64,000 nt of DNA, taken from NCBI GenBank assembly GCA_037481835.1, contig JBBFKW010000010.1, positions 1 through 64,000 on the forward strand. Reading direction: 5' to 3'. Under the pieces are notes generated by a model, which saw only the letters and a program-made list of their open reading frames with translations, had not been told where the DNA came from and did no database searches. A program made the position numbers and the translations under genes. Positions 11,530-46,300 of the stretch are shown piece after piece. The stretch comes from Desulfosoma sp. GTDB taxonomy: Bacteria; Desulfobacterota; Syntrophobacteria; Syntrophobacterales; DSM-9756. How positions within the stretch are numbered: position 1 is the stretch's first letter; each line of letters starts with the position of its first letter.

Positions 11530-11769
11530 TCACGACGCCGCCTTGATCCACGAGAGGACTTCCTCCTTTTTTGGAATCTTGCCCACGGATTTCACTTCTC
11601 CGTTGATGACGACGGCCGGGGTGCCGAAGACCCCGTAGCTCGCAATTTCCATGGCGTCGGTGACGTGGCCCACCGAAACCTGCAACCCGGCTTCCGCCAC
11701 GGCTTCTTTGACGATGGCTTCCGTCTGCTGGCACTTTTTGCATCCCGGTCCGAGCACCTTGATGTCCAT
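11530..11769 (-). CDS. Small thioredoxin-family protein (MTH895/ArsE-like)
   Basis: IKVLGPGCKKC...YGVFGTPAVVING. Confidence 0.9.
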   Translation of the reverse strand: MDIKVLGPGCKKCQQTEAIVKEAVAEAGLQVSVGHVTDAMEIASYGVFGTPAVVINGEVKSVGKIPKKEEVLSWIKAAS

Positions 11770-11811
11770 GTGAGTCCTCCTGAGTTGGTGAAGCTTGTTG
11801 ATCTTTTTGAC

Positions 11812-12481
11812 CCCCTCACCCTGCCCTCTCCCCCTAAAGGGGGAGAGGGTATCAGAAGGGGCTACCCTCCATTTTGGGGAAAGAACACATCCTGGGAGCC
11901 TCCCCTCTTAGGGAAAGAACACATCCTGGGAGCCTCCCCTCTTAGGGAAAGAGCACATCCGGGAGACCACCCCCTTTTAGGAAAAGAACGCATCTAGGGG
12001 GGGCAAACCCCTCTTCTCCCCTTCTGGGCCCAAGGAACATCAGGGAGTGGGCCCTTTTTTCCCTCTCCCCCCCTCTAGGCCCGAGGGTAACCTCAAGGAG
12101 TAAGCCCTTTTCTCCCTTCTCCCCCCCCTCTAGGCCCAGAGGGTATCGTCAGGGAGTGGGCCCTTTTTTCCCCCTCTCCCCCCTTTGGGGGGAGAGGGCA
12201 GGGTGAGGGGGGCAGCCGCTCTCGTGCTCCCTCACCCCCCTTTAGACGATAGGGGCAACACGCAGGGTCAAACCCTTCTTTTGCTTCTGCCCCCCTGGGG
12301 CCCAAGGGTATCGTCAAGGAGTCAGCCCTCTTTCCCCTCTCCCCTTCTGGGCCCGAGGGTAACCTCAAGGAGTAAGCCCTTTTCTCCCTTCTCCCCCCCT
12401 CTAGGCCCAGAGGGTAACGTCAGGGAGTGGGCCCTTTTTTCCCTCTCCCCCCTTTGGGGGGAGAGGGCAGGGTGAGGGGGG
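11812..12481. repeat. Composite repeat patch: CCCTCACCC..CTCTCCC..GGGAGAGGG palindromes plus 34-bp and ~52-bp tandem units
   Basis: Palindrome at 11812-11849 (+), 12172-12211 and 12441-12480 (-); GGGAAAGAACACATCCTGGGAGCCTCCCCTCTTA x2 exact plus 2 degenerate at 11877-11995; repeated GGCCC..AGGGTA..TCARGGAGT units at 12020-12440. Confidence 0.9.
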
Positions 12482-12499
12482 CAGCCGCGCGGCAGCCCC

Positions 12500-13009
12500 T
12501 CACGATGCTGCGCTCTTCAGCGCCTGCACCAAACGTTTCTTCAGCTCCGGCTTGGGGGGCACCCGGCCGGAAAAAAGGACCTGCCGCCCTACCACCAAGG
12601 CGGGCACCCCCAGGATCCCCATTTCCCCAATGGCGACGGGATCCCGCACGTGATCCACACTGACCGAAATTTTTTCCTCGTTGAGGATGTCCATCACTGC
12701 GCGTTCCAGGGCGTCGCACTGGGCGCAGCCCGGCCCGACCACGAGAACCGACATCTCTTGCGGCGGCTCGTCTTCCGTGACGGGTTCTCCGACAAAGCGC
12801 TGCCATTCCCGGTACAGGGCCTTTGCGTAATCGGCCCGAGCCCCGGAAGGAATGTAATTGTCCTTGGCGAGAAGCTGCAGGAGGCTCTCCTTGATTTCAT
12901 CGGGGGATCGGCCTGCCTTGGCGCAGAGGGCCGTCTCCTGGAGCGCCTCATCCAAACCCACCAGGCCCACCGTCTGGGTGCCGATGCGAAGCTGCCGGAC
13001 CGACTTCAT
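12500..13009 (-). CDS. Thioredoxin-family protein with N-terminal extension
   Basis: VVGPGCAQC...GILGVPALVV; ATGA overlap with arsR. Confidence 0.85.
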   Translation of the reverse strand: MKSVRQLRIGTQTVGLVGLDEALQETALCAKAGRSPDEIKESLLQLLAKDNYIPSGARADYAKALYREWQRFVGEPVTEDEPPQEMSVLVVGPGCAQCDALERAVMDILNEEKISVSVDHVRDPVAIGEMGILGVPALVVGRQVLFSGRVPPKPELKKRLVQALKSAAS

Positions 13010-13368
13010 GCCCCTCCTCCCGCCTGCCTGGAACAAATGGCCCCGCGATCCAATCGGGGGACCTTGTGCAAGACGGCCTGGATTTCAGGATCGTCATTCA
13101 GCCAGTGCTTGAGGCTCCCGAGAAGCATGGCCGCATAGGGGCTGCTCTGGCCGTCGGCGGGCCGGTAGTTGACCCACAGGCCGTCCTTTCGCTTTTCCAC
13201 GAGCCCTGCATCTTCCAGGATCTTAAGATGCTTGGATACGGTCGGCTGCGCCAGCCCGAGACCCGCTTGAATCTCGCAGACGCATAGTTCGCGGCGGTTG
13301 AGCATCTTCAAGATTTTCACCCGGTTGGGATCGGACAGAGCCTTCATGACCCGTATGAATTCCTTCAT
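13006..13368 (-). CDS. arsR: ArsR/SmtB transcriptional repressor
   Basis: KALSDPNRVKI, ELCVCEI box, SKHLKIL; GGAGG RBS. Confidence 0.93.
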   Translation of the reverse strand: MKEFIRVMKALSDPNRVKILKMLNRRELCVCEIQAGLGLAQPTVSKHLKILEDAGLVEKRKDGLWVNYRPADGQSSPYAAMLLGSLKHWLNDDPEIQAVLHKVPRLDRGAICSRQAGGGA

Positions 13369-13382
13369 GGCGCCTCCTACCG

Positions 13383-13426
13383 CTACATTGCGATATGGTA
13401 ATATAACATTCCATGTCGCCCGTCAA
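13383..13426 (-). promoter_or_regulatory. arsR promoter and putative operator
   Basis: TTGACG (13426-13421) upstream of TATATT-N10-AATGTA (13383-13406). Confidence 0.6.
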
Positions 13427-13515
13427 GCCCCTCGCCGCTGCGGCCGTTCCTGCAGCGTCGAAACACCGTGCAGGAGGATGCCGACCTGATCACGGCGCTT
13501 CCAAAAGGTCGCTCC

Positions 13516-16416
13516 TTACAGGAGCTGGGTGATGCGGAGCCGCTCGCTCAGGGGCTGCAGCGATTCCCAGGAGCCCAGAACCACCACCCGCCCCTTGTCC
13601 CGAAGGACTTCCAGGAATTGCCCGAAGGCCCGGAAATCGGCCGGCGTGGTCCCCAGGACCTCCTCGCGCATGCGTTGGCGCGCCTCGTCATCGTCTCCCG
13701 TAAGGCGCCGCACAAAGGACGTAAACCCCTTGGCATCCGGCAACAGATGCCGGTCCAGATCGCCGATGACACCAATAATGGCCTTGGTGAGTTCGTCTTC
13801 GTGGAGGCTGAGTGTTTTCAGGAAATCCGCGCATCGGTCGTAGGTCTCCAGGGTCTTTTCCACGTTGGGGTCCCTGTAGGAGACGAGGGCGAAGTCGCCG
13901 GAAAAGCGCTCCAGTTGGCTGAAAGCGCCGTAAGCGCCCCCCTGGACCCGCACGCGGTCCCACAGGTAGGCCGTGCGCAGGTAATGGCTCACCACGAGGG
14001 CCGATCCCCGAAACCGAAAGCCCGCCTCGCGTAGATCCGCCCCTTTGGCCACGTAGTTTACATGGACCGGGCTCGTAAAGCCTTCGTCGGCAGGCAGAGG
14101 ATCGGGCCGCCACGGGGCCGGAGGCACCGCACGACGGGGGACGCTCGACACCAAGGCTTGCACGGAACCGGCGGCTTTGTCCCAGGAAGGCCCATCCACG
14201 GTCACATTGACCCGAAGCCCCCGTGAGGTCAGGACGCAGCGGCGGACTTCTTCCAGATCCGCCACAACGCCGTCCCAGTCGGATTCCACCCGCTGGGCGA
14301 GTCTTCTCAGGAAAAAGAGGGATTCGATCCCCTTCATCTTTTCTTCGACCCAATGGGCCCGATGGAAACGCGCCTTGAGCCTTCTTGCGGCAAACCGGTG
14401 GCCTTCGGGAATGAGGTGCGCTTCTTTGCGGGCTTTGGATTCCAGAAGGATCTGGCGGAAACGGTCTCGCCGGTCCAGGCGAACCCCGGTGACCATATCC
14501 TGCAGGAGGGCGCAGAGGTCCGGCACTTGGCGGACGAGGGCCTTGCCCCGAAGGAAGAGCCACGCTCCGGGGGTTTCCCCGTCGGCGCACACGGCCGTGC
14601 TTGTCTGGACAAAAATGCCTCCGGTCTTTCGGCTGATGCGCTCATTGAGGGTGGCGTAATCTTCCTTGTCGGTGCCCATTTCCAGGAGGGCGCGGCCAAA
14701 AAGCGGCACGTAGCTTAAAAGGTCTGCGGGAACGCCCGAAAGGTCGAAGGCCAGGTCCAGGTAGAAGATGCCGTTGGTGAAAAGATCGTGGGTGAGCACG
14801 GGCACGCCGGCCAGGTGTTCTTCCTCGGCCGGAATCTTCTTGGTTTCCCGGTCCAGGTCTTCCAGGCGCAGCCGGGGGATGGCGGCCAGGGCTTCCGGGG
14901 GATCGGGCGTTTCCTGAAGTCGGCGAAGGGTTTCGGTTTCTTCCACGATCCGTTGGATGTCCTCACGGGACAGAGCGGCTTTCACGGCGGCCAAGGCCCG
15001 CGCTTCTTCCGCCTTGAGGCGCTCTTCCAGGGTCGTGTCCGGTTCCAGGAAGAGGGTCGCCCGATGGCGGTTCTCCACCCAGTACCGGGTCAGCAGACCT
15101 TCCAGGTAACGGTTTGCGGCCAGGGCTTTTTCCTTGACGGCGGCCAGAGGCTTTTCGAAGGCCACCAAGGCCAGGGGATCGCCGTCGTAGAGCCACGTGG
15201 AAAGGGCGCGCAGCATGAGGGCAAGGCCTCGGGGAAACTGGCCCGTATTGTTTTCGCGAAGACGAAATTCCACCGTGTTGAGGGCCGCTTCCACGGTTTC
15301 CCGGGGGATGCCCTTTTCGGCCAGGTCTTCCAAAACCCGGAGCACGAGCGCTTCCACCCGTTCCATGTTTTCCGGGGCGACGCCCTTGAGGCCCGTGGAA
15401 AACATCATCTGGCGCAGTTCCCCTTCGAGGCCCACACCCGATAGGTCTTCGCCCAGCCCCGATTCGATGAGGGCGCGCCGGAGGGGCGAGCCGGGCATGC
15501 CGAGCAGGATGTATTCCAGCACGTGGAGGGCCAGGTTCGTTTCGGCGGGTTCGGTGGGCGCGAGCAGCCAGTTGACCGTGACCATGGCCTTGGGAGGCTG
15601 ATCCTTGCCCACGGCGTAGGTCTTGGCGACGCGCCGGGGTTCGGGAAAGGGGCGCTGCAGGGCAATGGTGCTGTCCACCGGCAGGTGTCGAAAATCCTTG
15701 AGGACTTCCTGGAGAATCTGGAGGCGCTTTTGGGGATCATCGTCGCCGTAAAAGTAAAACCACGCGTTGGAAGGGTGATAGAAGGTCTCGTGAAAGGCTT
15801 TGAATTGTTCGTAGGTCAGGGAGGGGATCACCCGAGGGTCCCCGCCGGAATCCAACCCATAGGGGGTGTCCGGAAACAGGCTCTGTTGGCTGTATTCGAC
15901 GACGAGCCGGTCCGGGGAGGAATAGGCCCCGCGCATTTCGTTGTAGACGACCCCCTTGTAGGTCAAGGGATCGTCCGGGTTTTCCAGTTCGTAATGCCAG
16001 CCTTCCTGTTTGAAGATCCAGGGCGTGATCTTGGGATAAAAGACCGCGTCCAGATATACGTCGATGAGGTTGTAGAAATCCTGGTGGTTTTGGCTGGCCA
16101 CGGGGTAACAGGTCTTGTCCGGGTAAGTGAACGCGTTGAGAAAGGTTTGGAGCGAGCCTTTCAAAAGTTCCACGAAGGGTTCCTTGACAGGGTACTTGCG
16201 CGAGCCACAGAGGACGGAATGTTCCAGAATATGGGGAAGTCCCGTGGCATCCTTGGGCGGCGTTCGGAAGGTCACGCCGAAGACCTTGTTTTCGTCGTCG
16301 TTTTCCATGGAAAGGATCCGGGCCCCCGTCGGTTCATGGGAATAGATCTTGGCGAGAGTCTTGATCTCTTCGATGAACACTTCCCGATCCAGTCGAAAAT
16401 CGCCCCATTGCGACAT
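13516..16416 (-). CDS. M16C metallopeptidase (presequence protease/insulinase family)
   Basis: HILEHSVLCGSRKYPVKEPF (HXXEH), GVVYNEM, RVQGGAYG, SYRDPN. Confidence 0.95.
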   Translation of the reverse strand: MSQWGDFRLDREVFIEEIKTLAKIYSHEPTGARILSMENDDENKVFGVTFRTPPKDATGLPHILEHSVLCGSRKYPVKEPFVELLKGSLQTFLNAFTYPDKTCYPVASQNHQDFYNLIDVYLDAVFYPKITPWIFKQEGWHYELENPDDPLTYKGVVYNEMRGAYSSPDRLVVEYSQQSLFPDTPYGLDSGGDPRVIPSLTYEQFKAFHETFYHPSNAWFYFYGDDDPQKRLQILQEVLKDFRHLPVDSTIALQRPFPEPRRVAKTYAVGKDQPPKAMVTVNWLLAPTEPAETNLALHVLEYILLGMPGSPLRRALIESGLGEDLSGVGLEGELRQMMFSTGLKGVAPENMERVEALVLRVLEDLAEKGIPRETVEAALNTVEFRLRENNTGQFPRGLALMLRALSTWLYDGDPLALVAFEKPLAAVKEKALAANRYLEGLLTRYWVENRHRATLFLEPDTTLEERLKAEEARALAAVKAALSREDIQRIVEETETLRRLQETPDPPEALAAIPRLRLEDLDRETKKIPAEEEHLAGVPVLTHDLFTNGIFYLDLAFDLSGVPADLLSYVPLFGRALLEMGTDKEDYATLNERISRKTGGIFVQTSTAVCADGETPGAWLFLRGKALVRQVPDLCALLQDMVTGVRLDRRDRFRQILLESKARKEAHLIPEGHRFAARRLKARFHRAHWVEEKMKGIESLFFLRRLAQRVESDWDGVVADLEEVRRCVLTSRGLRVNVTVDGPSWDKAAGSVQALVSSVPRRAVPPAPWRPDPLPADEGFTSPVHVNYVAKGADLREAGFRFRGSALVVSHYLRTAYLWDRVRVQGGAYGAFSQLERFSGDFALVSYRDPNVEKTLETYDRCADFLKTLSLHEDELTKAIIGVIGDLDRHLLPDAKGFTSFVRRLTGDDDEARQRMREEVLGTTPADFRAFGQFLEVLRDKGRVVVLGSWESLQPLSERLRITQLL

Positions 16417-34554: not shown

Positions 34555-35493
34555 TCATCCCGACAGGTTCTTGTCCGCGTGCGCCTGATCGATTCGGTCC
34601 GCCAGGCAGCGGATCTTTTCACCTGCACGGAGCCCCTCCACCCATTCCAGGGGGAGGGCCTCAAAGCCGTGGTGCGCCCCCAGCACCATGCCGACGAGGA
34701 GGCCTCGGCCCGCCGAGTCCCCCCCGGCCATGACGTTTTGGATAAGGCCTTCGCGCAGGTCTTCGGCGTATCTGGCAATGAGATGCGCGACGGACGGAAA
34801 GGCCCCGTCCACCGCACAGCTTTGCCCGAAGTCCAAAATCGCGGCCTCCGTTTCCATGGATGCGCTCTCCAGGCCGTGGCGCACCCAGGACACCAGGGAA
34901 TCCGGGAGGGGCATCTCGTGGAGCACCGATTGCAGGGCGTCCGCCGGATGCTTTCCCGAGAGAACTTCCAGGGTCACGCGGGAGAAATAAACCGCCGCTT
35001 CTATAACCATGGGGTCGTTGTGGGTCATGGCGGTCTGAGCCCGCGCGGCCGTGAGGCAGCCTTCGGGTTCGCCTCTGTAAGCGTAGAGGACGGGGGCTGC
35101 CCGTCCTGCGCCCGCGAGATCCGTGGAGGAAGAGCCCGAGGTCTCGGGGCCGTGGCCTTCGGCGAACCGCTGGAGCGTCGCCTTGGTGGCCTTGTCCACA
35201 TAACCCCGGTAATCCGTGAAAAGCCGGCGCCATCGCGAGGCGAAATCCGAAAGGTGGAAGCGCCCGCCGTTTTCGGCCAAGGATTCCAGGAGGACGAGCA
35301 TCTGATCGCCGTAATGGGTGAAATCTCCAGCCGCCTTGCCGGGATGGTAGGAATCCGGCGCCGGCGCAAGGTAATGGTCCACGCGTCCGAATCGTTTTCG
35401 GATCATCGCAGGATCATAAATCCAATGGGCCCCCAGGGCCAAAGCATCGGCGGCGAAAGCCGCCCAGAGCATTCCACGAGCCTTATCGTCCAT
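34555..35493 (-). CDS. ADP-ribosylglycohydrolase family protein
   Basis: AADALALGAHW, FTHYGDQ, MTHN, AGGDSAGRG. Confidence 0.88.
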   Translation of the reverse strand: MDDKARGMLWAAFAADALALGAHWIYDPAMIRKRFGRVDHYLAPAPDSYHPGKAAGDFTHYGDQMLVLLESLAENGGRFHLSDFASRWRRLFTDYRGYVDKATKATLQRFAEGHGPETSGSSSTDLAGAGRAAPVLYAYRGEPEGCLTAARAQTAMTHNDPMVIEAAVYFSRVTLEVLSGKHPADALQSVLHEMPLPDSLVSWVRHGLESASMETEAAILDFGQSCAVDGAFPSVAHLIARYAEDLREGLIQNVMAGGDSAGRGLLVGMVLGAHHGFEALPLEWVEGLRAGEKIRCLADRIDQAHADKNLSG

Positions 35494-35663: not shown

Positions 35664-37364
35664 TCAGGCGCCGTGCATGCTCAGGATTTGGCGGCAGCAC
35701 CGGTTGTGGTAGGTGACGTCCAAGCCGTAGCGGGACTGAAGGCCGTCGTCCATGAGAAAACGCGGTGTGGGCAGGTCTTGCACCACGCAGCCTTGGTGGA
35801 GCACCACGGTGCGGTCGGTGAGGGCCGAGACGAAGCAGATATCGTGGCTGATGAGAATGAGCGTCGTCGGTAAATCATCCAGGAGGCCCAGGAGGCGCTC
35901 TTCGTTTTCGGGATCCAGATTGGCCGTGGGTTCGTCCAGGATGAGCACCCGGGGTTCCATGGCGAGCACCGCCGCCAGGGACAGCCTCTTGCGTTCCCCG
36001 GCGCTCAGGTGATGAGGGACGCGTTCCGCCATGCCGTCCAAACCCACCCGTGACAAGGCTTCGTGGACTCGGCGGCTCAATTGCGGCTCCCTGAACCCCA
36101 GGTGTTTCAAGCCGAAGGCCACCTCGTCGAAGCAGCTGGCACAAACCATCTGGTCCATGGAATCCTGGAAAACAATCCCCACGGAACGCCAAAGCTCCTT
36201 GCGCATCCGCCCACGGACGGCTTCCCCCCCGAATCGATAAACACCGCGCCCTGTTCGAATGCCCACCAGCACCGAGGCCAAGGTGGATTTGCCCGCGCCG
36301 TTTTCCCCGAGCAGTGCGATGCGTTCCCCGTCTTCCATGTGCAAAGAAACCCTTCGAAGGCCCCATGTCCCGTCGGGATAGCGATAGGAATAGTCTTCCA
36401 AGGCGATGAGAGGAGACCGGGTTCGTTGCCGGATCCGATGGGACACCGGGTTTGCCTCCGGGCGCGCAGGGGGTTGGGCCCCATGGTCCGATGGGATCGA
36501 CTCCGTCCTCTGGAGGCGGGATTTTTCCCGAGGGATTTTGGAAACCGCTTCGGGGTCGGAATGGCCGTGGGAGGCGGCGCCGTGGGGTCCCGAGCAGCAG
36601 TGGAAGCGAAAGGTGAAATCCAGCCCATGTTCTCTCAGGGACGGCCGATGGGCGATGAGCGCTTGGAAGTCCGTGTCGTGGTGCACGGCGCCGCGGTGCA
36701 GCACCACGGCCCTATGGCACAGGCCATAGAGGAACATGAGGTCGTGGCTGATGCACAGGAGCGTCCCGGAAAACCGGTCCAAAACGTCCAGGAGTCTTTC
36801 CGCGTTTCTGGAATCCAGGTTGGCCGTGGGCTCATCGAGAATGAGAACGGACGGGCGGCGTGCGAGGATGGCGGCCAAAGCGGCCCGTTTCCGCTGGCCG
36901 TAACTCAGATGGTGGGGGGCCTTGGCTCCATGGGCGCCAAGGCCCACGAGGTCCAGCATCTCGGAGACGATGGCCGAGGCCTCCTCCGGGGAAGCCCCGT
37001 CGTTCAGCGGCCCGAAGACCACATCGTCCACAACGCGGTTGCAAAACAGGTGATCGTCCGGATCCTGAAAAAGAATGCCTACCTGTTTTCGAAGACCGCT
37101 CAGGGCTTCCTTGCCGATTGGGCGGCCGTCGAAAATCACCCGCCCGCGGGAGGGGCTGATCAGGCCGCAGAGGACCTTGGCCAAGGTGGTCTTGCCGGAT
37201 CCGTTTTGGCCGACGAGCGCGATCTTTTCCCCGTGAGCAATGCTCAAAGAGACGCCGCGCAGGGCTTCCTTGCCGTCGGGGTACGTGTAGGACACATCAT
37301 CGAGATGAAAGAGGACGGCTTGCGAAGGACTTCTCGCGGCAATCGGCGTCGCCTGCCAATGCAT
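35664..37364 (-). CDS. cbiO: ECF transporter ATPase with two ABC domains (CbiO-like)
   Basis: Two Walker A (GQNGSGKT, GENGAGKS), LSYGQ/LSAGE signatures, ILDEPTANLD x2. Confidence 0.9.
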   Translation of the reverse strand: MHWQATPIAARSPSQAVLFHLDDVSYTYPDGKEALRGVSLSIAHGEKIALVGQNGSGKTTLAKVLCGLISPSRGRVIFDGRPIGKEALSGLRKQVGILFQDPDDHLFCNRVVDDVVFGPLNDGASPEEASAIVSEMLDLVGLGAHGAKAPHHLSYGQRKRAALAAILARRPSVLILDEPTANLDSRNAERLLDVLDRFSGTLLCISHDLMFLYGLCHRAVVLHRGAVHHDTDFQALIAHRPSLREHGLDFTFRFHCCSGPHGAASHGHSDPEAVSKIPREKSRLQRTESIPSDHGAQPPARPEANPVSHRIRQRTRSPLIALEDYSYRYPDGTWGLRRVSLHMEDGERIALLGENGAGKSTLASVLVGIRTGRGVYRFGGEAVRGRMRKELWRSVGIVFQDSMDQMVCASCFDEVAFGLKHLGFREPQLSRRVHEALSRVGLDGMAERVPHHLSAGERKRLSLAAVLAMEPRVLILDEPTANLDPENEERLLGLLDDLPTTLILISHDICFVSALTDRTVVLHQGCVVQDLPTPRFLMDDGLQSRYGLDVTYHNRCCRQILSMHGA

Positions 37365-37376
37365 GAAAGACCTCTC

Positions 37377-38327
37377 TTAAAAGATGAAAAGCCGCTCCGA
37401 AACGGCCCCCTGCCACCGATCGAGGGCGAACAGGGCAAGGGCCGTCCCCACCCACAGGGAGGCCCAGACCCAATCCCGACGTGATGCGCAAAACCGCACG
37501 GTGGAGGGAAAGACCCCCGCATAACCCCGGCACAACATGGCTTCATAGACCCTCTGGGTCCTCTCCATGCTGCGCACGAAGAGCATCCCCAGGAAACAGC
37601 CCAGGTGCCCCAGAGTATCCCAGCCGCTTCGGCTGCGAAAGCCCCGCACCGTCATCCCCACCCACATGCGGTGCATCTCATGGCGAAACACGAACACGTA
37701 CCGATACATGAGCAGGATCATCTGGCACATGACAACGGGGACCCCGAGCCTTTGCACGGCGGCCATGGTCACCGAAAAGGGGGCCGTTTTCAGCAAGGGT
37801 TCCATGAGCACGGCGACGATGACGGCTTTGGCGCAAATGCGGGCGGCCAGGACGCCCCCCCGGGCATTGAACTGCACAAACGGGACGCCTTCAAGGACGA
37901 TCCGCCGGTCCCCTTCATGGAAGGGAACGGTCAAGGGCATGATGAGAAGAAGCATCAGGAGAAAGCCGCTCATGGCCGAAAGGCGCCGCGCCGCTGCTCT
38001 CAAGGGCGTTCCGGCGACGGCGAGGGATCCTGCGGCGACGGCCAAGCCCAGGCCCAGCCCGAACCCATGGTTCAAGGACACGACGATGAAGGAAAAAAAG
38101 ACGAGGGAGAGGATTTTGAACCGTGGGTCCCAGCGATGAAAAAAGGAGGAGCCGGAGCCGACGACATCCAGTTCCGGCACGGAAGCGTCGGCATCCGATG
38201 CGCCCGGATCCTCGGCGTCTGCGTTGCCATCTTTTTCGGAGCCGCCCAAAAACCAGGCCGATGCCACCGCCGCCGCCGCGCCCAAGGCCAGGGCCGCGGC
38301 CCACCAGGGGACCACGGTCACGTTCAC
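37377..38327 (-). CDS. cbiQ: ECF transmembrane component (CbiQ/NikQ)
   Basis: SFFHRWDPRFKI, YRYVFVF, RGF, YEAMLCRGY; GTGA overlap with cbiM. Confidence 0.88.
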   Translation of the reverse strand: MNVTVVPWWAAALALGAAAAVASAWFLGGSEKDGNADAEDPGASDADASVPELDVVGSGSSFFHRWDPRFKILSLVFFSFIVVSLNHGFGLGLGLAVAAGSLAVAGTPLRAAARRLSAMSGFLLMLLLIMPLTVPFHEGDRRIVLEGVPFVQFNARGGVLAARICAKAVIVAVLMEPLLKTAPFSVTMAAVQRLGVPVVMCQMILLMYRYVFVFRHEMHRMWVGMTVRGFRSRSGWDTLGHLGCFLGMLFVRSMERTQRVYEAMLCRGYAGVFPSTVRFCASRRDWVWASLWVGTALALFALDRWQGAVSERLFIF

Positions 38328-38941
38328 GCGCTGGGCCTCCTCACCGGGTTCCGGAGCAATTCGGGCTTCACCTTCTGGAGAAAGGAGACCACGAAGGCCG
38401 AAATCACCCCTTCGAGGACGAGCACCGGCGCGTGGGCGGCCACGGCGATCTTGGCAACCCCGAAAAAGTCTTCTCCGCCCGTGGCCAAGAGCCCGGCAAG
38501 GATCAAGGCGGCGAGCGCCACGGCCGCCGCCGAGGCCGAAGCGGCCGCCACGACCGTCCCGGTGGCGCTGTGAGCGCCCATGCGGCGAAACAGCCAGGCG
38601 GCAAACCATGCCGGCAGGCCCATCATGAGGCCGTTGGCGCCAAGGGCCGTGAGGCCCCCGAACTGGAAGAGGAAGGCTTGGAGGACCAGCCCCAGAAAGA
38701 TGGAGAGAAAGGCGCTCCAGCCCGTAAGGATTCCCACGAGCCCCGGAAGAAGCAGGTGCACGCTCGTGGGCCCCAGGGGCACGTGAATGAGGGAAGCGAC
38801 AAAAAAGGCGGAGGTCATGACGGCGATCTTGGGGAGGTCTTCCCCGTCCGTTTTCTTGATGCTGAGGGCAAGACAGAGGCCCGAGGCCGCAAAGGATCCC
38901 ACGGCCACCGCCGTGGGCAACACCCCGTCGGAAAGATGCAT
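38324..38941 (-). CDS. cbiM: Co/Ni ECF substrate component (CbiM/NikM)
   Basis: N-terminal MHLSDG metal-binding motif, SLIHVPLGPTSVHL, GGLTALGAN. Confidence 0.93.
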   Translation of the reverse strand: MHLSDGVLPTAVAVGSFAASGLCLALSIKKTDGEDLPKIAVMTSAFFVASLIHVPLGPTSVHLLLPGLVGILTGWSAFLSIFLGLVLQAFLFQFGGLTALGANGLMMGLPAWFAAWLFRRMGAHSATGTVVAAASASAAAVALAALILAGLLATGGEDFFGVAKIAVAAHAPVLVLEGVISAFVVSFLQKVKPELLRNPVRRPSA

Positions 38942-38965: not shown

Positions 38966-39331
38966 TTAGGAGCCCGTATGCTGCCGGTGCCGATTGCGTG
39001 CGTGCAGGTAGAAGGCTATGCCGAAAACACCCAAAATGTAGCCGATCCCCCCCACGATGTCTTTCAAGTCCGGCTCGTTCAGGGCGACCTTCAGGGCGGC
39101 AATTTCCCTTTTGACGGCGCGCAACTCCTGAGCCATTTCCCGCTGCTGGGCCTGGATCGCTTCGAGGATCCGAACCGCCTCGCCGGTCCCTTTTTCCGCG
39201 TCCGCGCCGCCGGCCGAGGCTACGGCTTCATGGGCTTTGGGCGGCGCCGTCCCAGGCTCCGCCGCCAACACCGGCCCCCCTGCAAGGCCGGCGCACATCA
39301 AGAACATGGCGAGCACAAGGCGAACCTTCAT
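38966..39331 (-). CDS. Accessory Ni/Co transport membrane protein (CbiL/NikL C-terminal-like)
   Basis: Signal peptide, coiled coil, DIVGGIGYILGVFG TM helix. Confidence 0.7.
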   Translation of the reverse strand: MKVRLVLAMFLMCAGLAGGPVLAAEPGTAPPKAHEAVASAGGADAEKGTGEAVRILEAIQAQQREMAQELRAVKREIAALKVALNEPDLKDIVGGIGYILGVFGIAFYLHARNRHRQHTGS

Positions 39332-39342
39332 GGCGGAGCCCC

Positions 39343-39696
39343 TCACAGATCGCTCTTTTTCAGCGTGGCCACAGCCCGGTGTCCCATGGAAGCATTCACT
39401 TCGATGGTCAAATCCGTTTTCTCGGAAGGCGCGGGAAATTGGGCGCGCCCTTCCTTGTCGGTGGTTCCCTCGAAGATTTTGGCCCCCTTCGGGTCGGTGA
39501 CGCTCACCGTCCCCTGGACCACCGGAGAACCATCGGGAAAATAGCTTTCCACGAAAACGGTCCCCCCTTCCGCATAAGCGAAGACGTTCACCTTATGGGC
39601 CCAGGCCCCAACGGAAGGAAAACACGCCACAAAGACCCCCAAGACAACCGCCGAGACAGCCTTCCAAAAGAAAATTCCAGACTTTGTAGCCATCAT
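39343..39696 (-). CDS. Accessory periplasmic Ni/Co transport protein (CbiL/NikK N-terminal-like)
   Basis: Signal peptide ending AWA-HKVNVFAYAEG; YFPDG; GTTDKEG; MGHRA. Confidence 0.75.
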   Translation of the reverse strand: MMATKSGIFFWKAVSAVVLGVFVACFPSVGAWAHKVNVFAYAEGGTVFVESYFPDGSPVVQGTVSVTDPKGAKIFEGTTDKEGRAQFPAPSEKTDLTIEVNASMGHRAVATLKKSDL

Positions 39697-39719
39697 CGCC
39701 CCTTCTCCTTCGTCCAGGA

Positions 39720-39856
39720 AACAAAAGGCCGAACGTCTCCTCTAGACGTCGGCCTTCGTGACCGCCCTACCCAGGGTTGGCTTTCAGCCCGAAAATGCGC
39801 GCTTCAGCGCCCATTCATGACAACCGCACCATAATCCCCTCGGCGAGCGCCGTCAA
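39720..39856 (-). promoter_or_regulatory. Promoter and structured leader with intrinsic terminator (candidate riboswitch/attenuator) of the cbi/nik operon
   Basis: TTGACG-N17-TATGGT (39856-39828); three small hairpins in 39821-39757; terminator AAGGCCGACGTCT-AGAGG-AGACGTTCGGCCTTTT (39756-39723). Confidence 0.65.
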
Positions 39857-39944
39857 GCCGGTTCAAAACCATCCAGCGGCTCCAGGCGATCGGATATTTT
39901 TGATCCAGACCCCTGGATCCCCTGCCCCTCAACGTCCGCCTTTA

Positions 39945-41021
39945 ATGCCCATCGCGGCCCGTTGCGGAAAAAATCGCGGCACGCCCCTTAGCGCTCAGAC
40001 CCAGGATTCACCCCTTCCCACCGTAGCCGTGGTCAGCCCCAAACCGGCCCAACCGGCCTCCCCCCTTCTCAGCGCAGAAGTCAAGCCGGTCCAGGAAGCG
40101 CCCATCTATGCCCGGGCCAATGGGTACCTCAAGCGCCGGTATGTGGACATGGGCGATGCGGTCCATGAAGGGCAACTTCTGGCGGAAATCGATGCGCCCG
40201 AATTGCTCCAGGAACTGCAGCGGGCTCGAGCCCAGCTCGCCCAGGCTGAGGCCGCTTTGGAACTGGCCCGAGTCACCGCGCAGCGTTGGGCCGAGCTCGT
40301 AAAAACCGCCAGCGTCAGCGAGCAGGAAAACGCGGAAAAACAAGCGGACCACCGGTTGAAGAAAGCCAATGCGGCGGCGGCCCGAGCAGAAGTGCAGCGC
40401 CTGGAGCAGATGGTGTCCTACACTCGGATCACTGCCCCCTTCCCCGGGGTCATCGCGAGCCGAAATGTGGATGTGGGGGATTTGATCGTCGCCGGGGCCG
40501 CCAAGGCCCTCTTCCGGCTCGCCCAAACCCAACGCTTGACTGTTTCCGTCCAGGTGCCCCAGCACATGGCTCGGGACATCCGGGTCGGGCAGGAGGCTGA
40601 AATGACTGTTGCGGAACTCCGCGGCCGGACCTTCCATCCTCGCGTGGTGCGTACGGCGGGCGTCATCGCCGCGGATTCCCGCACGTTCTTGGTGGAACTG
40701 GAACTGGACAATCCCGGCGGTGAGGTGCTGGCCGGGAGCTACGCCCAGGTTTTGTTCAAGGAAGCGGGCGCGCCGCCCGCCTTGACCCTTCCGACCCGGG
40801 CAGTGCTTTTTCGACCTGAAGGAGCCCGAGTTGCCGTTTTCGGAGAGCTGGGCGTTGTGGAGCTTCGCGCCGTGACCCTGGGCCGGGACTTCGGCCAAAC
40901 GATGGAGATTTTGAGCGGCCTCAACGCCACGGACCGGGTCGTCGCCAATCCTCCCGATTTCCTGGAAGCCGGCGTCAAGGTGCGTGCAGCCACGGCGGAC
41001 GATAAGGAGAAAAGCCGATGA
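39945..41021 (+). CDS. Efflux periplasmic adaptor (MFP), apparently lacking its N-terminal anchor
   Basis: IYARANGYL...DMGDAV..GQLLAEID lipoyl motif, ITAPFPG; no TM helix before the conserved core. Confidence 0.75.
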   Translation: MPIAARCGKNRGTPLSAQTQDSPLPTVAVVSPKPAQPASPLLSAEVKPVQEAPIYARANGYLKRRYVDMGDAVHEGQLLAEIDAPELLQELQRARAQLAQAEAALELARVTAQRWAELVKTASVSEQENAEKQADHRLKKANAAAARAEVQRLEQMVSYTRITAPFPGVIASRNVDVGDLIVAGAAKALFRLAQTQRLTVSVQVPQHMARDIRVGQEAEMTVAELRGRTFHPRVVRTAGVIAADSRTFLVELELDNPGGEVLAGSYAQVLFKEAGAPPALTLPTRAVLFRPEGARVAVFGELGVVELRAVTLGRDFGQTMEILSGLNATDRVVANPPDFLEAGVKVRAATADDKEKSR

Positions 41022-42553
41022 AGAGTCTTGTGGAGGGCGGCGAACGGTCGCGGGCGAAACGGTTTTTGGGGATTTTCTGGGCGGGGCTGAGCGCCGTGAT
41101 CCTCATGGGCGGCTGCACCGTGGGACCCAACTATCGACGACCCGAAGCCACGGCGGTCCCCCAGGCTTACAGCAGAATCCCAGAGGGGTGGAAGATGGCC
41201 GAGCCCCAAGCGCATCTGCCCAAAGGGCGGTGGTGGGAAATTTTTGGAGATTCCGAGCTGAACCGGCTGGAAAACCAAGCCCAGGCCGCCAATCAGAACC
41301 TCAAAGCCGCCTACGCCCGTTTCGCCCAAGCGCGCGCCGTCGCGGACGCGGCCCGATCCGGCCTGTTCCCCCGCCTGGGGGCTTCCTTTCAGGCCCTGGA
41401 ACAGCACGACTCGGAAAACCGCCCCGTCGGCGGAAAGCGGGGGCAAACCTACGATGTTTTCACTGTGCCCTTTGATCTGAGCTACGAAGTGGACTTATGG
41501 GGGCGGGTTCGCCGCTCCGCGGAATCCGCCTCCGCCCAGGCGGAAGCCTTCGCTGATGACGCCGAAGCCGTCAAATTGTCCATCCAGGCGGAAGCGGCCG
41601 CCGACTACTTCACGATCCGGACGCTGGACGCCGACAGGGCTCTGCTTCTTTCCACGATCGACGTGTACCAAAAGTCATTGGAACTGGTCCGCAACCGCCG
41701 CTCGGGCGGCGTAGCCTCCGACTTGGACGTCGCCCAGGCGGAAACCGTTTTGAAAACCGCAAGGGCCCAGGTTTCAGACAACGCCCTGCAAAGGGCCAAG
41801 TTCGAAACGGCCTTGGCCGTACTCCTGGGACAAAACCCGTCCCTTTTCCACCTGGTCGAGGCGCCCTTGGATCTGGGGCCTCCCGTCGCCCCCGACCCGG
41901 GACTGCCCAGTGCCCTTCTGGAACGCCGTCCCGACATCGCCGCTTCGGAACGGCGCATGGCCGCCGCCAACGCCCAGATCGGCACGGCCACGGCCGCTTT
42001 TTTCCCCACGATCAAATTGGGCCTAACCACCGGGTTCTGGAGCGGGGCTTTGGGGTCCGATAGGGACCTGAGCACCTTATTCGAAAAATCCAGTCAGTTT
42101 TGGATCGTCAATCCCGCCCTGATCCTTCCCGTCATTCAAGGAGGCCAGCTGAGCGCCAACCTCCGGCAGGCCAAGGCGGCCTATGAAGAAGCCGTGGCTC
42201 GGTATCGGCAGACGGTCCTGGCGGCTTTTGCGGAGGTGGAAAGCAGCCTGGCGGCGGTGCACCACTTGGCCCGGCAATATGACGACCTGCGGGACGCCCT
42301 GGTGTCGGCCCGCACGCAGCTGGATGTGGCCCATCATCGGTATGTGGCCGGCCTGGTGACGTATCTGCAGGTGGCGACGGCCCAAAACACGTCTTTGGGA
42401 ATCGAGCGCTCCGCCTTGCGCCTGCGAGGCCAGCAGCTGGTGGCCACGGTGGGATTGATCAAGGCGTTGGGCGCAGGGTGGGAGTCCCCTTCGTCCGTTC
42501 CCCCGAAGCAAAACGACGGACAATTTCAGCCACAGGACCCGAACGATCACTGA
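41018..42553 (+). CDS. NodT/OprM-family outer membrane efflux lipoprotein
   Basis: Lipobox LMGGC-TVGPNY.RP, YEVDLWGRVRR, PSALLERRPDIAASE, KALGAGW. Confidence 0.92.
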   Translation: MKSLVEGGERSRAKRFLGIFWAGLSAVILMGGCTVGPNYRRPEATAVPQAYSRIPEGWKMAEPQAHLPKGRWWEIFGDSELNRLENQAQAANQNLKAAYARFAQARAVADAARSGLFPRLGASFQALEQHDSENRPVGGKRGQTYDVFTVPFDLSYEVDLWGRVRRSAESASAQAEAFADDAEAVKLSIQAEAAADYFTIRTLDADRALLLSTIDVYQKSLELVRNRRSGGVASDLDVAQAETVLKTARAQVSDNALQRAKFETALAVLLGQNPSLFHLVEAPLDLGPPVAPDPGLPSALLERRPDIAASERRMAAANAQIGTATAAFFPTIKLGLTTGFWSGALGSDRDLSTLFEKSSQFWIVNPALILPVIQGGQLSANLRQAKAAYEEAVARYRQTVLAAFAEVESSLAAVHHLARQYDDLRDALVSARTQLDVAHHRYVAGLVTYLQVATAQNTSLGIERSALRLRGQQLVATVGLIKALGAGWESPSSVPPKQNDGQFQPQDPNDH

Positions 42554-42842: not shown

Positions 42843-44225
42843 TTATGAGATGCCGTAGCGCTTCATCTTGCGCCACAGCGTCGCTCGGCTGATGCCCAGT
42901 TCACGAGCCGCTTCCACGCGATTGCCGTGGACCTTGCGCAGCACCCAGCGGATGGTGCGTTCTTCGGACGAGGCCAAAAGGGAGGCCTCGGGCCGTTCCC
43001 GGCGCCGGCTTCGCACTTTGCCCACCACATCCATGGGCAAATGCTTCACTTCAATGACAGGGCCGGAACACAGGACGCACGCATGTTCGATGATGTTTTC
43101 CAGTTCGCGCACGTTCCCGGGAAAGTCATAGTTCATCAGCAGACTCAAGGCCGGTTCGGAAATCTCGCGGATGTTTTTCCCGCACACGGCATTGTATTTT
43201 TTCAGCATGTGGCGGGCCAGCAAAGGGATGTCTTCCCGGCGCTCCGCCAGCGTGGGCAGCCGGATGCCGATGACATTCAGCCGGTAGAAGAGGTCGCCTC
43301 GAAAGGCGCCTTCCTCAACCTTGCGCTCTAGGTCCACGTTGCTGGCCGCCACAATGCGCACATCGGCGGACACGGGTTCCGTCGCGCCCAATGGGACGAA
43401 AACCCGTTCTTCCAAGAATCGCAGGAGCTTCACCTGGAGCGCGCCGGACATGCACCCCACTTCGTCGAGAAAGAGCGTGCCGCCGGCTGCGGTCTGCAAC
43501 CGCCCCGGCTTGTCTTTCTTGGCATCCGTAAAGGCCCCCTTGCGATAGCCGAAAAGCTCGGATTCCAACAGAGGGTCCGGGATGGCCCCGCAGTTGAGCT
43601 TCACGAAGGGACCGTCGCGGCGGGGGCTGAGCTGGTGGATGATGCGGGCGAGCATACTCTTGCCCGTGCCGCTTTCCCCCTGGATCAAGACCGTGCTGGG
43701 GCTTTCGGCCACCACCGGAAGAAGCTCGAGAATTTCCTGCATGAGCGGGTTCTTGCTGACGACCTCGCCGAAGTGGTAGGAATCGTGGAGGACCTTGCGC
43801 AAGTCCTCCTCCACGCTGCAATCCCGCACCACTTCCACCGCCGCCACGACCCGCCCCTGCGCATCCTTAATGGGGGAGACCGAAACGCACACGGGTACTT
43901 CCCGGTGATCCCGGGTGACGATCCGCGCCGGTCGATCCCGAACCCCCTCCCCGCTCTGAAAGACGACGTCCAAAGGGCATTGGGTCTGGCACAGGTTGGA
44001 ACGCAAGATGTCATAACAGGTTCGGCCCAGGGCCTCGTCCACACGAAAACCCGTGAGGCGTTCCGCCGCATGATTAAAGAACCCTTCAATGCGCCGATCC
44101 CGACCCACCACGAAGACTCCGTCACCGATACTGTTCATGATCAAACAGCAGGTGTGCCCGTTTTCCGTCACGCCGCAGAGGGACGGGGCCCCTGCGGGCA
44201 AGCCCTCTTCATCCCGTCCGTTCAT
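42843..44225 (-). CDS. PAS-domain sigma54-dependent Fis-family activator
   Basis: PAS with C-x6-C-x3-CP, GESGTGKS, ESELFG..KGAFTDA, FPGNVREL, Fis HTH. Confidence 0.93.
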   Translation of the reverse strand: MNGRDEEGLPAGAPSLCGVTENGHTCCLIMNSIGDGVFVVGRDRRIEGFFNHAAERLTGFRVDEALGRTCYDILRSNLCQTQCPLDVVFQSGEGVRDRPARIVTRDHREVPVCVSVSPIKDAQGRVVAAVEVVRDCSVEEDLRKVLHDSYHFGEVVSKNPLMQEILELLPVVAESPSTVLIQGESGTGKSMLARIIHQLSPRRDGPFVKLNCGAIPDPLLESELFGYRKGAFTDAKKDKPGRLQTAAGGTLFLDEVGCMSGALQVKLLRFLEERVFVPLGATEPVSADVRIVAASNVDLERKVEEGAFRGDLFYRLNVIGIRLPTLAERREDIPLLARHMLKKYNAVCGKNIREISEPALSLLMNYDFPGNVRELENIIEHACVLCSGPVIEVKHLPMDVVGKVRSRRRERPEASLLASSEERTIRWVLRKVHGNRVEAARELGISRATLWRKMKRYGIS

Positions 44226-44272
44226 GACATGCCGCCTTCTTTGCTTGGGATGTTCGAAGACGTTCCGCTCCT

Positions 44273-46300
44273 TCAGGCGCCGTCCCGGGCGAGAAGGGCG
44301 GCCCCCAAGGCACCGATGATCTGCGGCTCCGGGGCCGTGGCAATGCGCCCTCCCAAGCGGCGTTCCAAGGCCTTGACGACCCCGGCGTTCTTGGCCACCC
44401 CCCCGGTCATGGCCACCACGGGCCGACGCCCGACCTTTTTCAGCAAGGCCGCGGTCCTTTCCGCCACACTCTCGCAAATGCCCCGGCAGATGGCCTCCAC
44501 CGGGTGCCCTTCCGCAATGTGGGACACCACCTCGCTTTCCGCAAAGACGGAACAGACCGAACTGATGGGCACGGCTCGAGACGCCCCGGCGCCCAAATCA
44601 CTCAAATCCTCGATGTCCATCTCCAGGGCTCGAGCCATGAGTTCCAGGAACCGGCCGGTTCCCGCGGCGCACTTGTCGTTCATGAGGAAGTTTTCCACCT
44701 CGCCCTTGTCGTTGACCGCAATGGCCTTGGTGTCCTGTCCCCCGATATCGATGATGGTGCGCACGTCGGGAAACAGATGCCACATGCCCCGCGCATGGCA
44801 CGTGATCTCGGTTATCTGCTCGTCGGCGAAATCCACCACTTTGCGGCCGTAACCCGTCGCCACGCACCGGCGCACGGACCCGTAGCGTCGGCTCACCTCA
44901 TGGAGGAACCCCTCAAGGGATGCCGCCGCCCGGCGGGCGCTGGCGCCGGTGGCGTTCATGACATGGGCCACCATGCGCCCCTGCGAGTCCACCACAACGG
45001 CCTTGGCCGTCATGGAGCCGATGTCGATCCCGGCAAAAAGCCCGTCGGACGATAGGCTCGTTTTCCGAACCTTTCCCGAACGCCTCTTCAAGAGTTCCAC
45101 GAAACCCTCCAATCGCGTCCGCGTCGGCCCTTCCGCATAACTGCGGCTGTCGATGCAATCCCCGTCAAGATCCAGGAACGGAACGCCGAACCGTTCCAGG
45201 AGTTCCGCCACAGCCCGGACGCCGCCCTGGCCCTGACGGCATCCCCAATGGGAAAAATGGACCACCCCGTCGGGCCTGGCCGAGCGCACCATGCATTCCA
45301 CCATGCGCAGCCGCCTGTCCACGGGCCCCAGCCCGGGATTCTGGAGCATCTTGACCGCCAGGCTCTCGTAAGGACGCTGCGGGTCCAAGGGATCCCAGAA
45401 GACGTGGGTGAGCTCATCCAACACGGGCCACAGGTTGAGCGTCCGTTCCATGAAGGGGACAAAATTCCCCTTGAAGTAGGGAAAGGTCAAGAGCCACACA
45501 AGTCGGAACCCGACACGGCCGGTATTCCCCTGGAGCGACGCCCGATGGATCTCTTCAGCAAGGTATTCCAAGAGCCGCGGCAGCTGCGGCAGACCGAGCA
45601 TGAGTTGCGCCTGGATCAAGGCCGTGCTCACGTCCTTTCCGCACACGCCGGCCGGCGCCGCCGCTCGCAACTGGTTCAGCCGAACCATGACGTCCCGGGC
45701 GGCGTTGCTGAAGCCGAAAACGCGTTCCCAGTCGTCCCGGCCGAGCTTTTTTCCGCTCAACGCCGACAAAACCGCGTCCGCACCCTCGATCTGCCGTTCC
45801 AGATAGACTCGGGCCTCGGGGGTATCCTCCTGGGGAACATCCAGGACGATGAAAGGAACCCCCAGACGCGCCGCCACTTCTTCCAAGGCCTTGCACTGGG
45901 TGTCGCACAGATGGGTCGTGGCCGCCACCGCGTCCAACGAGGGCAGGTACCCTTTCAAGAAGGCGGCCATGGCGGCCCGGTGAAAAGTGCAGCTTTCCAC
46001 GGGGAAGCCTTCCCCGTCCACGACGCCGAGGGCGTTTTTTTCAAGCCCCGTGGAAGCCAAGGCCGACGCCACGAACTCACCGAACATGGGCGTCATGCCG
46101 TGGGCGTGAAGCATTTCCACGGGAAAGAAAAAGCCCGCCAGCACCGTAGGTTTCTTTTTCGAATACAACGCGGCCAGAAGACGCAGGGTTTCATAGTGCA
46201 GGGCATCGAGAGCGGAACTCCCGGTGATAGCCCTCAGTTTTTCCACGGTGAGCAAACCTCTGGCCGCCAGCGGCATCAAGAAACGCTCAGCGTCCCGCAT
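44273..46300 (-). CDS. 2-hydroxyacyl-CoA dehydratase subunit fused to a BadF/BadG-type ASKHA activase
   Basis: N: ESCTFH, HLCD, HWGCRQ, DGDC..TRLEGF; C: GIDIGSMTAK, TGYGR, EITCHA, DIGGQDTK, MNDKCAAGTGRF. Confidence 0.9.
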   Translation of the reverse strand: MRDAERFLMPLAARGLLTVEKLRAITGSSALDALHYETLRLLAALYSKKKPTVLAGFFFPVEMLHAHGMTPMFGEFVASALASTGLEKNALGVVDGEGFPVESCTFHRAAMAAFLKGYLPSLDAVAATTHLCDTQCKALEEVAARLGVPFIVLDVPQEDTPEARVYLERQIEGADAVLSALSGKKLGRDDWERVFGFSNAARDVMVRLNQLRAAAPAGVCGKDVSTALIQAQLMLGLPQLPRLLEYLAEEIHRASLQGNTGRVGFRLVWLLTFPYFKGNFVPFMERTLNLWPVLDELTHVFWDPLDPQRPYESLAVKMLQNPGLGPVDRRLRMVECMVRSARPDGVVHFSHWGCRQGQGGVRAVAELLERFGVPFLDLDGDCIDSRSYAEGPTRTRLEGFVELLKRRSGKVRKTSLSSDGLFAGIDIGSMTAKAVVVDSQGRMVAHVMNATGASARRAAASLEGFLHEVSRRYGSVRRCVATGYGRKVVDFADEQITEITCHARGMWHLFPDVRTIIDIGGQDTKAIAVNDKGEVENFLMNDKCAAGTGRFLELMARALEMDIEDLSDLGAGASRAVPISSVCSVFAESEVVSHIAEGHPVEAICRGICESVAERTAALLKKVGRRPVVAMTGGVAKNAGVVKALERRLGGRIATAPEPQIIGALGAALLARDGA

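Follow-up and report, generated by a model that had tools for sequence, protein, structure and literature searches.

The leader RNA in front of the nikL-cbiM-cbiQ-cbiO operon in the analysed stretch of Desulfosoma sp. DNA (64,000 nucleotides, referred to here as the window) is, as judged from comparative sequence analysis, a copy of a widespread and uncatalogued RNA leader family, which is absent from Rfam 15 and from the literature searched. This family probably consists of transcription attenuators that govern a regulon for the acquisition of nickel, possibly also of cobalt, and whose read-through would need a factor locking a conserved mini-hairpin (H3). The initial annotation had described a single candidate metal-responsive switch ahead of this operon; the motif is real and more general than was seen there, and appears to represent a new attenuator-leader family for nickel/cobalt acquisition.

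The leader is encoded on the minus strand and its elements are listed in Table 1. The promoter proposed in the initial annotation was borne out: it is a sigma-70-like site with 9 of 12 consensus matches and the only promoter-like site in the 1 kb region at 39300-40300 (mean of 0.2 in shuffled sequences), and it places the predicted transcript start at about 39821. In most related leaders a TTGAC box, judged by eye, lies 100-130 nt upstream of H3. The strong intrinsic terminator that had been claimed ahead of the first start codon was also found, the end of its U tract lying 22 nt from the ATG at 39696; a simple terminator scan missed it because the stem contains a bulged U. As read from the sequence, the 5′ arm of this terminator, AAGGCC, is the 3′ half of H3. 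As is expected of an attenuator, a G+C-rich hairpin with a U tract lies between promoter and start codon, and a conserved alternative structure, H3, excludes the terminator. The fold of the whole leader was moderately better than that of shuffled sequences (z = -2.35). A four-codon ORF (AUG AAU GGG CGC UGA) in the window leader was considered as a leader peptide and dropped, since inspection by eye revealed no counterpart in the relatives.

Three short hairpins had been described in this leader, and all of them are present in the sequence and fold as described. However, the third one, CCCU-GGGU-AGGG, is missing from the genus's other leaders and lies outside the conserved motif. The second hairpin (H2), which is weak in the window, forms better in the three remaining genus genomes (UUGGGCUGAAGCCCAA) and was predicted de novo by RNAalifold from the four leaders of the genus. 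The most conserved element of the leader, GGUCACGAAGGCC, which forms H3, had been overlooked; the segment UCACGA, to which a different pairing had been assigned, is part of it.

Table 1. Coordinates of the leader elements, the operon and neighbouring or related loci (window positions unless another locus is named; leader structures and promoter are predictions)
Feature	Position	Strand	Remarks
Promoter	39856-39828	-	-35 TTGACG 39856-39851, 17-nt spacer, -10 TATGGT 39833-39828
H1 (partner hairpin)	39815-39794	-	AAUG-G-GCGC-UGAA-GCGC-G-CAUU; core 39810-39799; -10.4 kcal/mol
H2 (second GAA-loop hairpin)	39790-39779	-	GGGC-UGAA(A)-GCC; weak, -2.9 kcal/mol as GGCU-GAA-AGCC
Third hairpin of the initial annotation	39776-39765	-	CCCU-GGGU-AGGG; -4.5 kcal/mol
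H3 (mini-hairpin)	39763-39751	-	GGUC-ACGAA-GGCC; -3.1 kcal/mol
Intrinsic terminator	stem 39756-39727, U tract 39726-39719	-	U tract UUUUGUUU; -21.5 kcal/mol
nikL, N-terminal half	39343-39696	-	117 aa, signal peptide; NF058648 profile positions 2-96
nikL, C-terminal half	38966-39346	-	126 aa; NF058648 profile positions 114-180
cbiM/nikM	38324-38941	-	Pfam; only CbiM in the genome
cbiQ	within 37377-38609	-	Pfam
cbiO, double ATPase	35664-37364	-	Pfam
ADP-ribosylglycohydrolase family gene	34555-35493	-	directly after cbiO
Group II intron domain RF00029	33407-33485	-	44.8 bits; ~1 kb downstream of the cbiO operon region
Membrane-fusion protein (HlyD_D23/CusB-like), then outer-membrane efflux protein (OEP)	39777-42553	+	divergent from the nik leader
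Sigma-54 activator with PAS domain	42843-44477	-	after the HlyD_D23/OEP pair
Split nikL of a second genus genome	L003:1119-1851
DUF3842 and 63-aa cooT	G000:C9:22821-23420 (L107:8821-9433)	-	overlap of 8 nt
Cobalamin riboswitch before TonB receptor-binding protein-FecCD-ATPase operon	G000:C9:25696-30837 (L107 ~11700-16001)
Two motif copies facing apart (L341/L346)	G488:C95:7881-8197		MAG labelled Nitrospirae; ~200 nt between copies

For the comparison of leaders, homologues of the first gene of the operon were gathered from 60 relatives. An extra DUF4198 (NikK-type) gene opens the operon in two of the order's three families, and there the conserved block precedes that gene. The leaders of the relatives could not be aligned except for this one block, GGYCA(C/U/A)GAAGGYC, which is followed by a terminator. 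The comparison with orthologous leaders that had been proposed as a check on the annotation turned out positive, as orthologous and also non-orthologous leaders share one motif with covarying stems. The family consensus of H3 is GGYC-AYGAA-GGYC with the loop A(C/U/A)GAA, and it is near-invariant across families and phyla. At positions 3 and 12 of H3 the 90 instances carry UC (33), CC (31), CU (25) and UU (1), a distribution that departs from independence (Fisher p 8e-6, not corrected for kinship), and the near-absence of UU fits the avoidance of tandem wobble pairs in a short stem. Rare variants, such as GACC...GGUC and GGCC...GGCU, also remain paired. As the exchanges are limited to G-C/G-U and single A-U cases, they support the pairing of H3 without proving it. 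An A is found five bases upstream of H3 in 41 of 56 leaders.

The second element, almost always present, is a partner hairpin (H1), in which the stem sequence is free and the loop C-(N)NGAA-G is conserved (C-UGAA-G in the window). Hairpins of this class were found upstream of H3 in 51 of 84 instances, compared with 8 in the reversed control and 1-7 in shuffled sequences. An independent set of 83 loci, which had been selected only by H3 and the terminator, gave 67 versus 15 reversed and 5-16 shuffled. The spacing between the partner hairpin and H3 is 39-137 nt, with a median of 57. Among the 46 seed leaders the H1 loops are UGAA (17), AUGAA (8), AGAA (6), AGGAA (4), CGAA (3) and others (8), and the partner loop of many families, CC-A(C/U/A)GAA-GG, is identical to that of H3. 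Some leaders, including those of the window's genus, carry two upstream partners. A GAA hairpin inside the terminator loop was detected in 30 of the 83 instances (12 reversed, 0-5 shuffled), and some leaders without an upstream partner, such as those of the Anaerolineae type, carry one at this position. In 83 model-aligned hits H1 was paired at 98.2% with double changes at all six of its pairs, H3 was paired at 100%, and the covariation score was 0.585 versus 0.223 in shuffled and at most 0.202 in slid alignments; these figures are an upper bound because the seed H1 hairpins were chosen for pairing and the alignment was fitted to the model, and the leaders counted are kin rather than independent. 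Generic NGAA-loop hairpins with at least 5 pairs showed no genome-wide enrichment (794 vs. 683 with the reversed loop), thus the loop alone does not define the motif, and it is the combination that is specific.

The distribution of the motif was followed with the pattern GGYCAHGAAGGYC-N6-36-TTTTT, using the reversed pattern, counted by hand, as control. It matched 58 of the 96 genomes of the order versus 25 of 96 for the control, and 126 of the 401 genomes of the phylum sample versus about 58. The background of this pattern is sizeable, since the reversed control matches about a quarter of the order's genomes and, in the loci collected for this comparison, 36 of 126 pattern hits fall in long open frames. 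A covariance model (R1), built on 21 leaders, detected the motif in 46 of the 96 genomes of the order at E<=0.01. Two platform classes could be distinguished. In platform 1, which occurs in the window and in most nik operons, the terminator begins at the GGCC of the block, while in platform 2 a long terminator uses the whole block as its 5′ arm and has CUUCGUGGCC as its 3′ arm, followed by a U run. Scanning the named genome records for the second form yielded at least 122 loci, most of them, among the matches listed, from Thermodesulfobacteriota; again among the matches listed, some copies lie in MAGs labelled Bacillota, Anaerolineae and Nitrospirae, two of which hold two or three copies each. 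Desulfosarcina variabilis and Desulfoferrobacter suflitae are among the named carriers. In one MAG labelled Nitrospirae two copies face apart (Table 1), which suggests a divergent pair of regulated operons. Four copies with class-1 terminators (L060, the second copy of L075, L076 and L133) are followed within ~250 nt by IS630-like transposase genes carrying HTH_29/HTH_32, one of them with DDE_3. Either an insertion parted these leaders from their operons or the element travels with the leader.

The absence of a match to known metal- or B12-sensing RNAs, as stated in the initial annotation, held for the whole set. In the window, cmscan against Rfam 15 gave nothing on the leader at the gathering score, the only hit being the group II intron fragment elsewhere, and the 39600-40000 region had no match up to E = 10. 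In 17 related loci no match was found on the leader at E <= 1, the lone hit being mir-320 (E 0.16) elsewhere in L008, and a further 16 related loci likewise gave no leader match. Thus, no Rfam family fits the window leader or the 33 related loci, in line with the annotated view that the RNA is undescribed. The motif was also not described in the literature searched on riboswitches with nickel, NikK/ECF, TonB or CbiM, and the article text of two ncRNA discovery papers (PMC11109978, PMC8632094) makes no mention of nickel, cobalt or TonB.

Several known systems share single properties with this leader. The NiCo (czcD) riboswitch is likewise a leader RNA tied to Ni/Co homeostasis that works through a terminator; however, according to the part of PMC11672702 used here, it is a four-way junction that turns on exporters at high metal, whereas the leader has neither a junction nor an exporter behind it, and the RF02683 model matched neither the window leader (E<=10) nor the 33 related loci (E<=1). 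Cobalamin riboswitches control similar genes in many bacteria (TonB receptor, BtuFCD-type ABC and CbiM-type transporters), but the window leader is half their size, lacks a B12 box and matched neither RF00174 nor its variants. As a positive control, the cobalamin model found five copies elsewhere in the window's genome (63-125 bits), preceding cbiC, cbiK, cobT, a radical-SAM gene and a TonB receptor-BtuFCD-like operon. Therefore, B12 control is present in this organism and is separate from the leader.

In architecture, the closest likeness is to guanidine-II (mini-ykkC) RNAs, which consist of two small hairpins with free stems, conserved ACGR terminal loops and a highly variable linker. In these RNAs, as in guanidine-IV (mepA) and HMP-PP (thiS) riboswitches, the 3′ hairpin extends into the expression platform, and ligand binding turns expression on. 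The family described here shares with guanidine-II, as generally described, the two free-stem hairpins, the conserved loops, the variable linker and the 3′ hairpin in the expression platform, and it resembles guanidine-IV and HMP-PP (the latter in part as its abstract presents it) as a terminator-embedded design. It differs from guanidine-II in that its loops are (N)NGAA rather than ACGR, the H3 stem is invariant, the partner may sit in the terminator loop and the genes serve metal uptake instead of guanidine export; the H1 loops of the 46 seed leaders and the H3 loop do not follow the ACGR scheme, and no Rfam model of guanidine-II, guanidine-IV or HMP-PP matched the window leader or the 33 related loci. 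ANTAR sites are made up of two hairpins with hexaloops (A1/G4) and short linkers, the second hairpin overlapping a terminator, and a protein stabilises the antiterminated state. Together with lambda boxB-N they resemble our leaders in the way these may work, with small tandem hairpins that would be read through their loops and an antiterminated state that a protein would stabilise. However, the loops here are of 4-5 nt ending in GAA, so that only the terminator overlap is in common with ANTAR targets, and boxB acts processively, without terminator overlap.

The genes behind the motif point to nickel acquisition. Pfam analysis was carried out on 48 of the 85 downstream ORFs, leaving aside those already identified as NikL-type, near-duplicates and short ORFs. 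Plug domains were found in 8, CbiM in 4, transposase-like domains in 4, DUF4198 in 3 and CbiA/MinD-like proteins of ~260 aa (CooC-like ATPases) in 3; SBP_bac_5, FecCD, Peripla_BP_2, a tetrapyrrole methylase fusion and DUF3786 occurred twice each, ten families once each (ExbB, DUF3842, DUF3450, FmdE and Fe-only hydrogenase among them), and 6 ORFs had no family. Behind the second-form copies in named records, 69 of 72 ORFs were analysed in the same way, and among the matches listed there were 18 Plug (TonB-dependent receptor) proteins, 10 CbiM, some with PDGLE or DUF4198, three each of DUF4198, FecCD, DUF6802 and outer-membrane channel-like proteins, two each of FmdE and DUF3842, and single SBP_bac_5, Peripla_BP_2, DUF3786, YHS, ChlI-like and GNAT proteins, while 19 had no Pfam family. 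No exporter family was found in either set, that is, among the 117 downstream ORFs scanned (for the second form, among the matches listed). The ECF systems behind the motif are of the Nik type, with NikL, NikK or a fused NikN-like PDGLE domain, and comparative work assigned such systems to nickel (as given in the part of PMC2667541 used here). One downstream substrate-binding protein matches NikA best, below the curated cut-off.

This gene content matches that of NikR regulons, with nik ECF transporters, a NikA-type binding protein, TonB/ExbBD, TonB-dependent receptors and Fe-only hydrogenase. The predicted NikR regulon of Desulfovibrio desulfuricans comprises nikKMLQO and Fe-only hydrogenase, as far as the relevant part of PMC545781 goes, and titles in the reference list of PMC11247825 connect Helicobacter NikR with TonB/ExbBD and outer-membrane receptors. 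NikR, however, acts on DNA operators, whereas the signal shared here is in the transcript and overlaps the terminator. Of the order's 96 genomes, only 2 gave a NikR_C match, and the window's genome gave none; one of the two lacks the motif by both the pattern and covariance searches and the other has NikR and the motif. Some downstream genes, namely the tetrapyrrole methylase fusion, the ChlI-like chelatase and DUF3786, point to cobalt/corrinoids over nickel. Because of these targets, and because a B12-producing genome has a single CbiM, cobalt or both metals may be involved.

Three copies of the motif occur in the window's genome. The first precedes nikL-cbiM-cbiQ-cbiO, the second precedes exbB-exbD-tonB-DUF3842-cooT, and the third, which scores just 18.4 bits (E 0.28) and was accepted by eye, lies directly after cooT, before fecCD-ABC ATPase-periplasmic binding protein-two TonB-dependent receptors. 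A canonical cobalamin riboswitch operon with a TonB receptor, a binding protein, FecCD and an ATPase is situated immediately upstream of the motif-controlled exbBD-tonB operon and the second FecCD-type operon, so two parallel uptake systems stand in tandem under two different RNA leaders. In the window, NikL is divided into an ORF for a secreted N-terminal domain and one for a C-terminal membrane part, and since a second genome of the genus has the same arrangement, the split appears to be a conserved one and not the result of a frameshift. The ADP-ribosylglycohydrolase family gene, next after cbiO and in the same orientation, may be cotranscribed with it; a group II intron domain lies farther downstream. 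On the other side of the leader, the divergent HlyD_D23/CusB-like and OEP genes may form a system for metal efflux that stands back to back with the operon for uptake, and they are followed by a sigma-54 activator gene. DUF3842 and cooT overlap, and this pair recurs across the order and often adjoins copies of the leader motif. DUF3842 is very conserved, with an invariant GQGGGIG loop; its small, Rossmann-like model gave only weak PDB matches and the Atlas search returned only its own family. It was considered as a trans factor and set aside, as its presence in 93 of the 96 genomes makes it uninformative.

The overlap with the terminator suggests how the leader could work. H3 and the complete terminator exclude each other because the 3′ half of H3 is the base of the terminator stem, and the exclusion applies to platform 2 as well. 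For a plain helix the sequence could vary freely, therefore the invariance of H3 must stem from its mini-hairpin state. With -3.1 kcal/mol against -21.5 kcal/mol for the terminator, H3 cannot hold alone, therefore something must recognise it; and since the only other conserved feature is a partner with a similar loop, H3 may be read as an antiterminator that becomes locked to the partner loop. In the proposed scheme, the RNA would start at about 39821 and fold one or two free-stem hairpins with C-(N)NGAA-G loops (H1, H2), after which H3 (GGUC-ACGAA-GGCC) would form in competition with the terminator stem. Termination would be the default state, and a factor recognising the GAA loops would lock H3 to the partner hairpin, resulting in read-through. 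Because all targets are uptake machinery or nickel-sparing enzymes, the switch would be ON at nickel shortage. The anatomy makes read-through the specifically recognised state, whereas a plain OFF switch ahead of uptake genes, thrown by bound metal, would require the opposite sign. It counts against the scheme that a ligand-stabilised ON state is the reverse of the response expected of a metal-sensing switch in front of such genes. As the effector, a small ligand or ion acting directly on the RNA, as in a guanidine-II-like riboswitch, is ranked slightly above an RNA-binding protein, the two being about as likely.

The multi-way junction proposed in the initial annotation, closed by UCAUGA/UCACGA pairing, could bind Ni2+ or Co2+ and favour the terminator. 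Such an OFF switch would suit uptake genes. Both segments are present in the window leader and, by eye, a 4-5 bp complement close to the 5′ end was seen in three further genus leaders. However, the helix contains an A-C mismatch and appears neither in the minimum-energy fold nor in the consensus fold of the four genus leaders. In 56 related leaders an upstream complement to the 5′ half of H3, which could have formed such a closing helix or an anti-antiterminator, averaged 4.52 nt versus 4.32 in shuffles, that is, chance level, and several of the matches in this search were the -35 box. With no conserved closing helix in these leaders and the non-conserved CCCU-GGGU-AGGG hairpin among its arms, the junction could not be upheld; moreover, in platform 2 H3 is the 5′ arm of the terminator, and sequestering the 5′ half of H3 would oppose termination. 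We regard this alternative as highly improbable. Hardly more probable is that the leader senses nothing and is a constitutive partial terminator, a stability or processing element, or a small-RNA target that spread by descent or mobility. The short conserved core and the four copies beside IS630-like transposase genes would agree with this, but a plain terminator needs neither an invariant 13-mer nor a free-stem partner with a conserved loop, and the tie to one functional gene class across several phyla argues for regulation. The copies differ in everything outside the motif; being alike in the motif only, they are not explained by recent mobility.

Protein-dependent antitermination deserves more weight than either of these, although it is still a rather unlikely explanation. 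A dimeric or multimeric RNA-binding protein, active at low nickel, would bind the GAA loops of H3 and its partner and block the terminator; the best candidate is a small nickel-binding protein of the CooT family, whose apo form would bind the RNA and whose Ni-bound form would release it. The ON state being the recognised state suits an apo-protein activator under starvation, and the tolerance in the arrangement of partner hairpins (one, two or three of them, before or after H3, with spacings of 39-137 nt) is typical of protein sites. In the window's genome the 63-aa cooT ends ~20 nt before a motif copy (called copy 2 in this comparison). A hand comparison of the order's 96 genomes gave 17 in which no more than 8 kb separate a motif hit from a cooT gene, and this gene often forms a pair with DUF3842. 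The 63-aa ORF belongs to the CooT family as judged by profile, Cys2 and fold (PF10133, E 4.4e-24; PDB 6fan, E 2e-11; TM of the model to 6fan 0.89), Cys2 being kept and MCEANAY invariant in 12 sequences. According to the part of a preprint used here (bioRxiv 10.64898/2026.03.10.710785), Cys2 of CooT is a nickel ligand and the protein is treated as a homodimer. On the other hand, two motif-bearing genomes, G010 (complete to 100%, with three clear copies) and G012 (complete to 97%), gave no CooT hit, CooT occurs in 90 of the 96 genomes of the order and so does not track the motif, and no regulatory role is required to explain why nickel-uptake operons encode a nickel chaperone. The RNA-binding, 'Sm-like' character attributed to CooT in the literature was not confirmed by the structure search with the CooT model, only CooT structures being returned below E 0.001, with RimM-like barrels as the next, weak matches. 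In the phylum sample CooT was found in 244 of 401 genomes and, by hand comparison, in about 99 of about 125 pattern-positive genomes, and many of the CooT-negative, pattern-positive genomes probably represent chance pattern hits.

Hydrogenases, CO dehydrogenase/acetyl-CoA synthase and related enzymes of anaerobes, among them sulfate reducers and syntrophs, depend on nickel. In an order that is nearly without NikR (2 of 96 genomes), a shared leader RNA would define the nickel-uptake regulon, and many transporters and receptors that are now 'unassigned' would receive a substrate. For RNA biology, the gain would be a minimal riboswitch of new architecture or else a new pair of RNA and protein for antitermination. 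The motif itself is short and abundant, and in vitro tests of it are easy. We put forward tentatively, as a possibility we would not yet expect to hold, that the leader may be the first RNA-level sensor for nickel acquisition, either as a new two-hairpin riboswitch class, in which the GAA loops would enclose a ligand that signals nickel shortage, or as the RNA target of CooT. In the latter case, a supposed nickel chaperone would be a nickel-dependent antitermination factor, and CooT would replace NikR in Thermodesulfobacteriota and other anaerobes.
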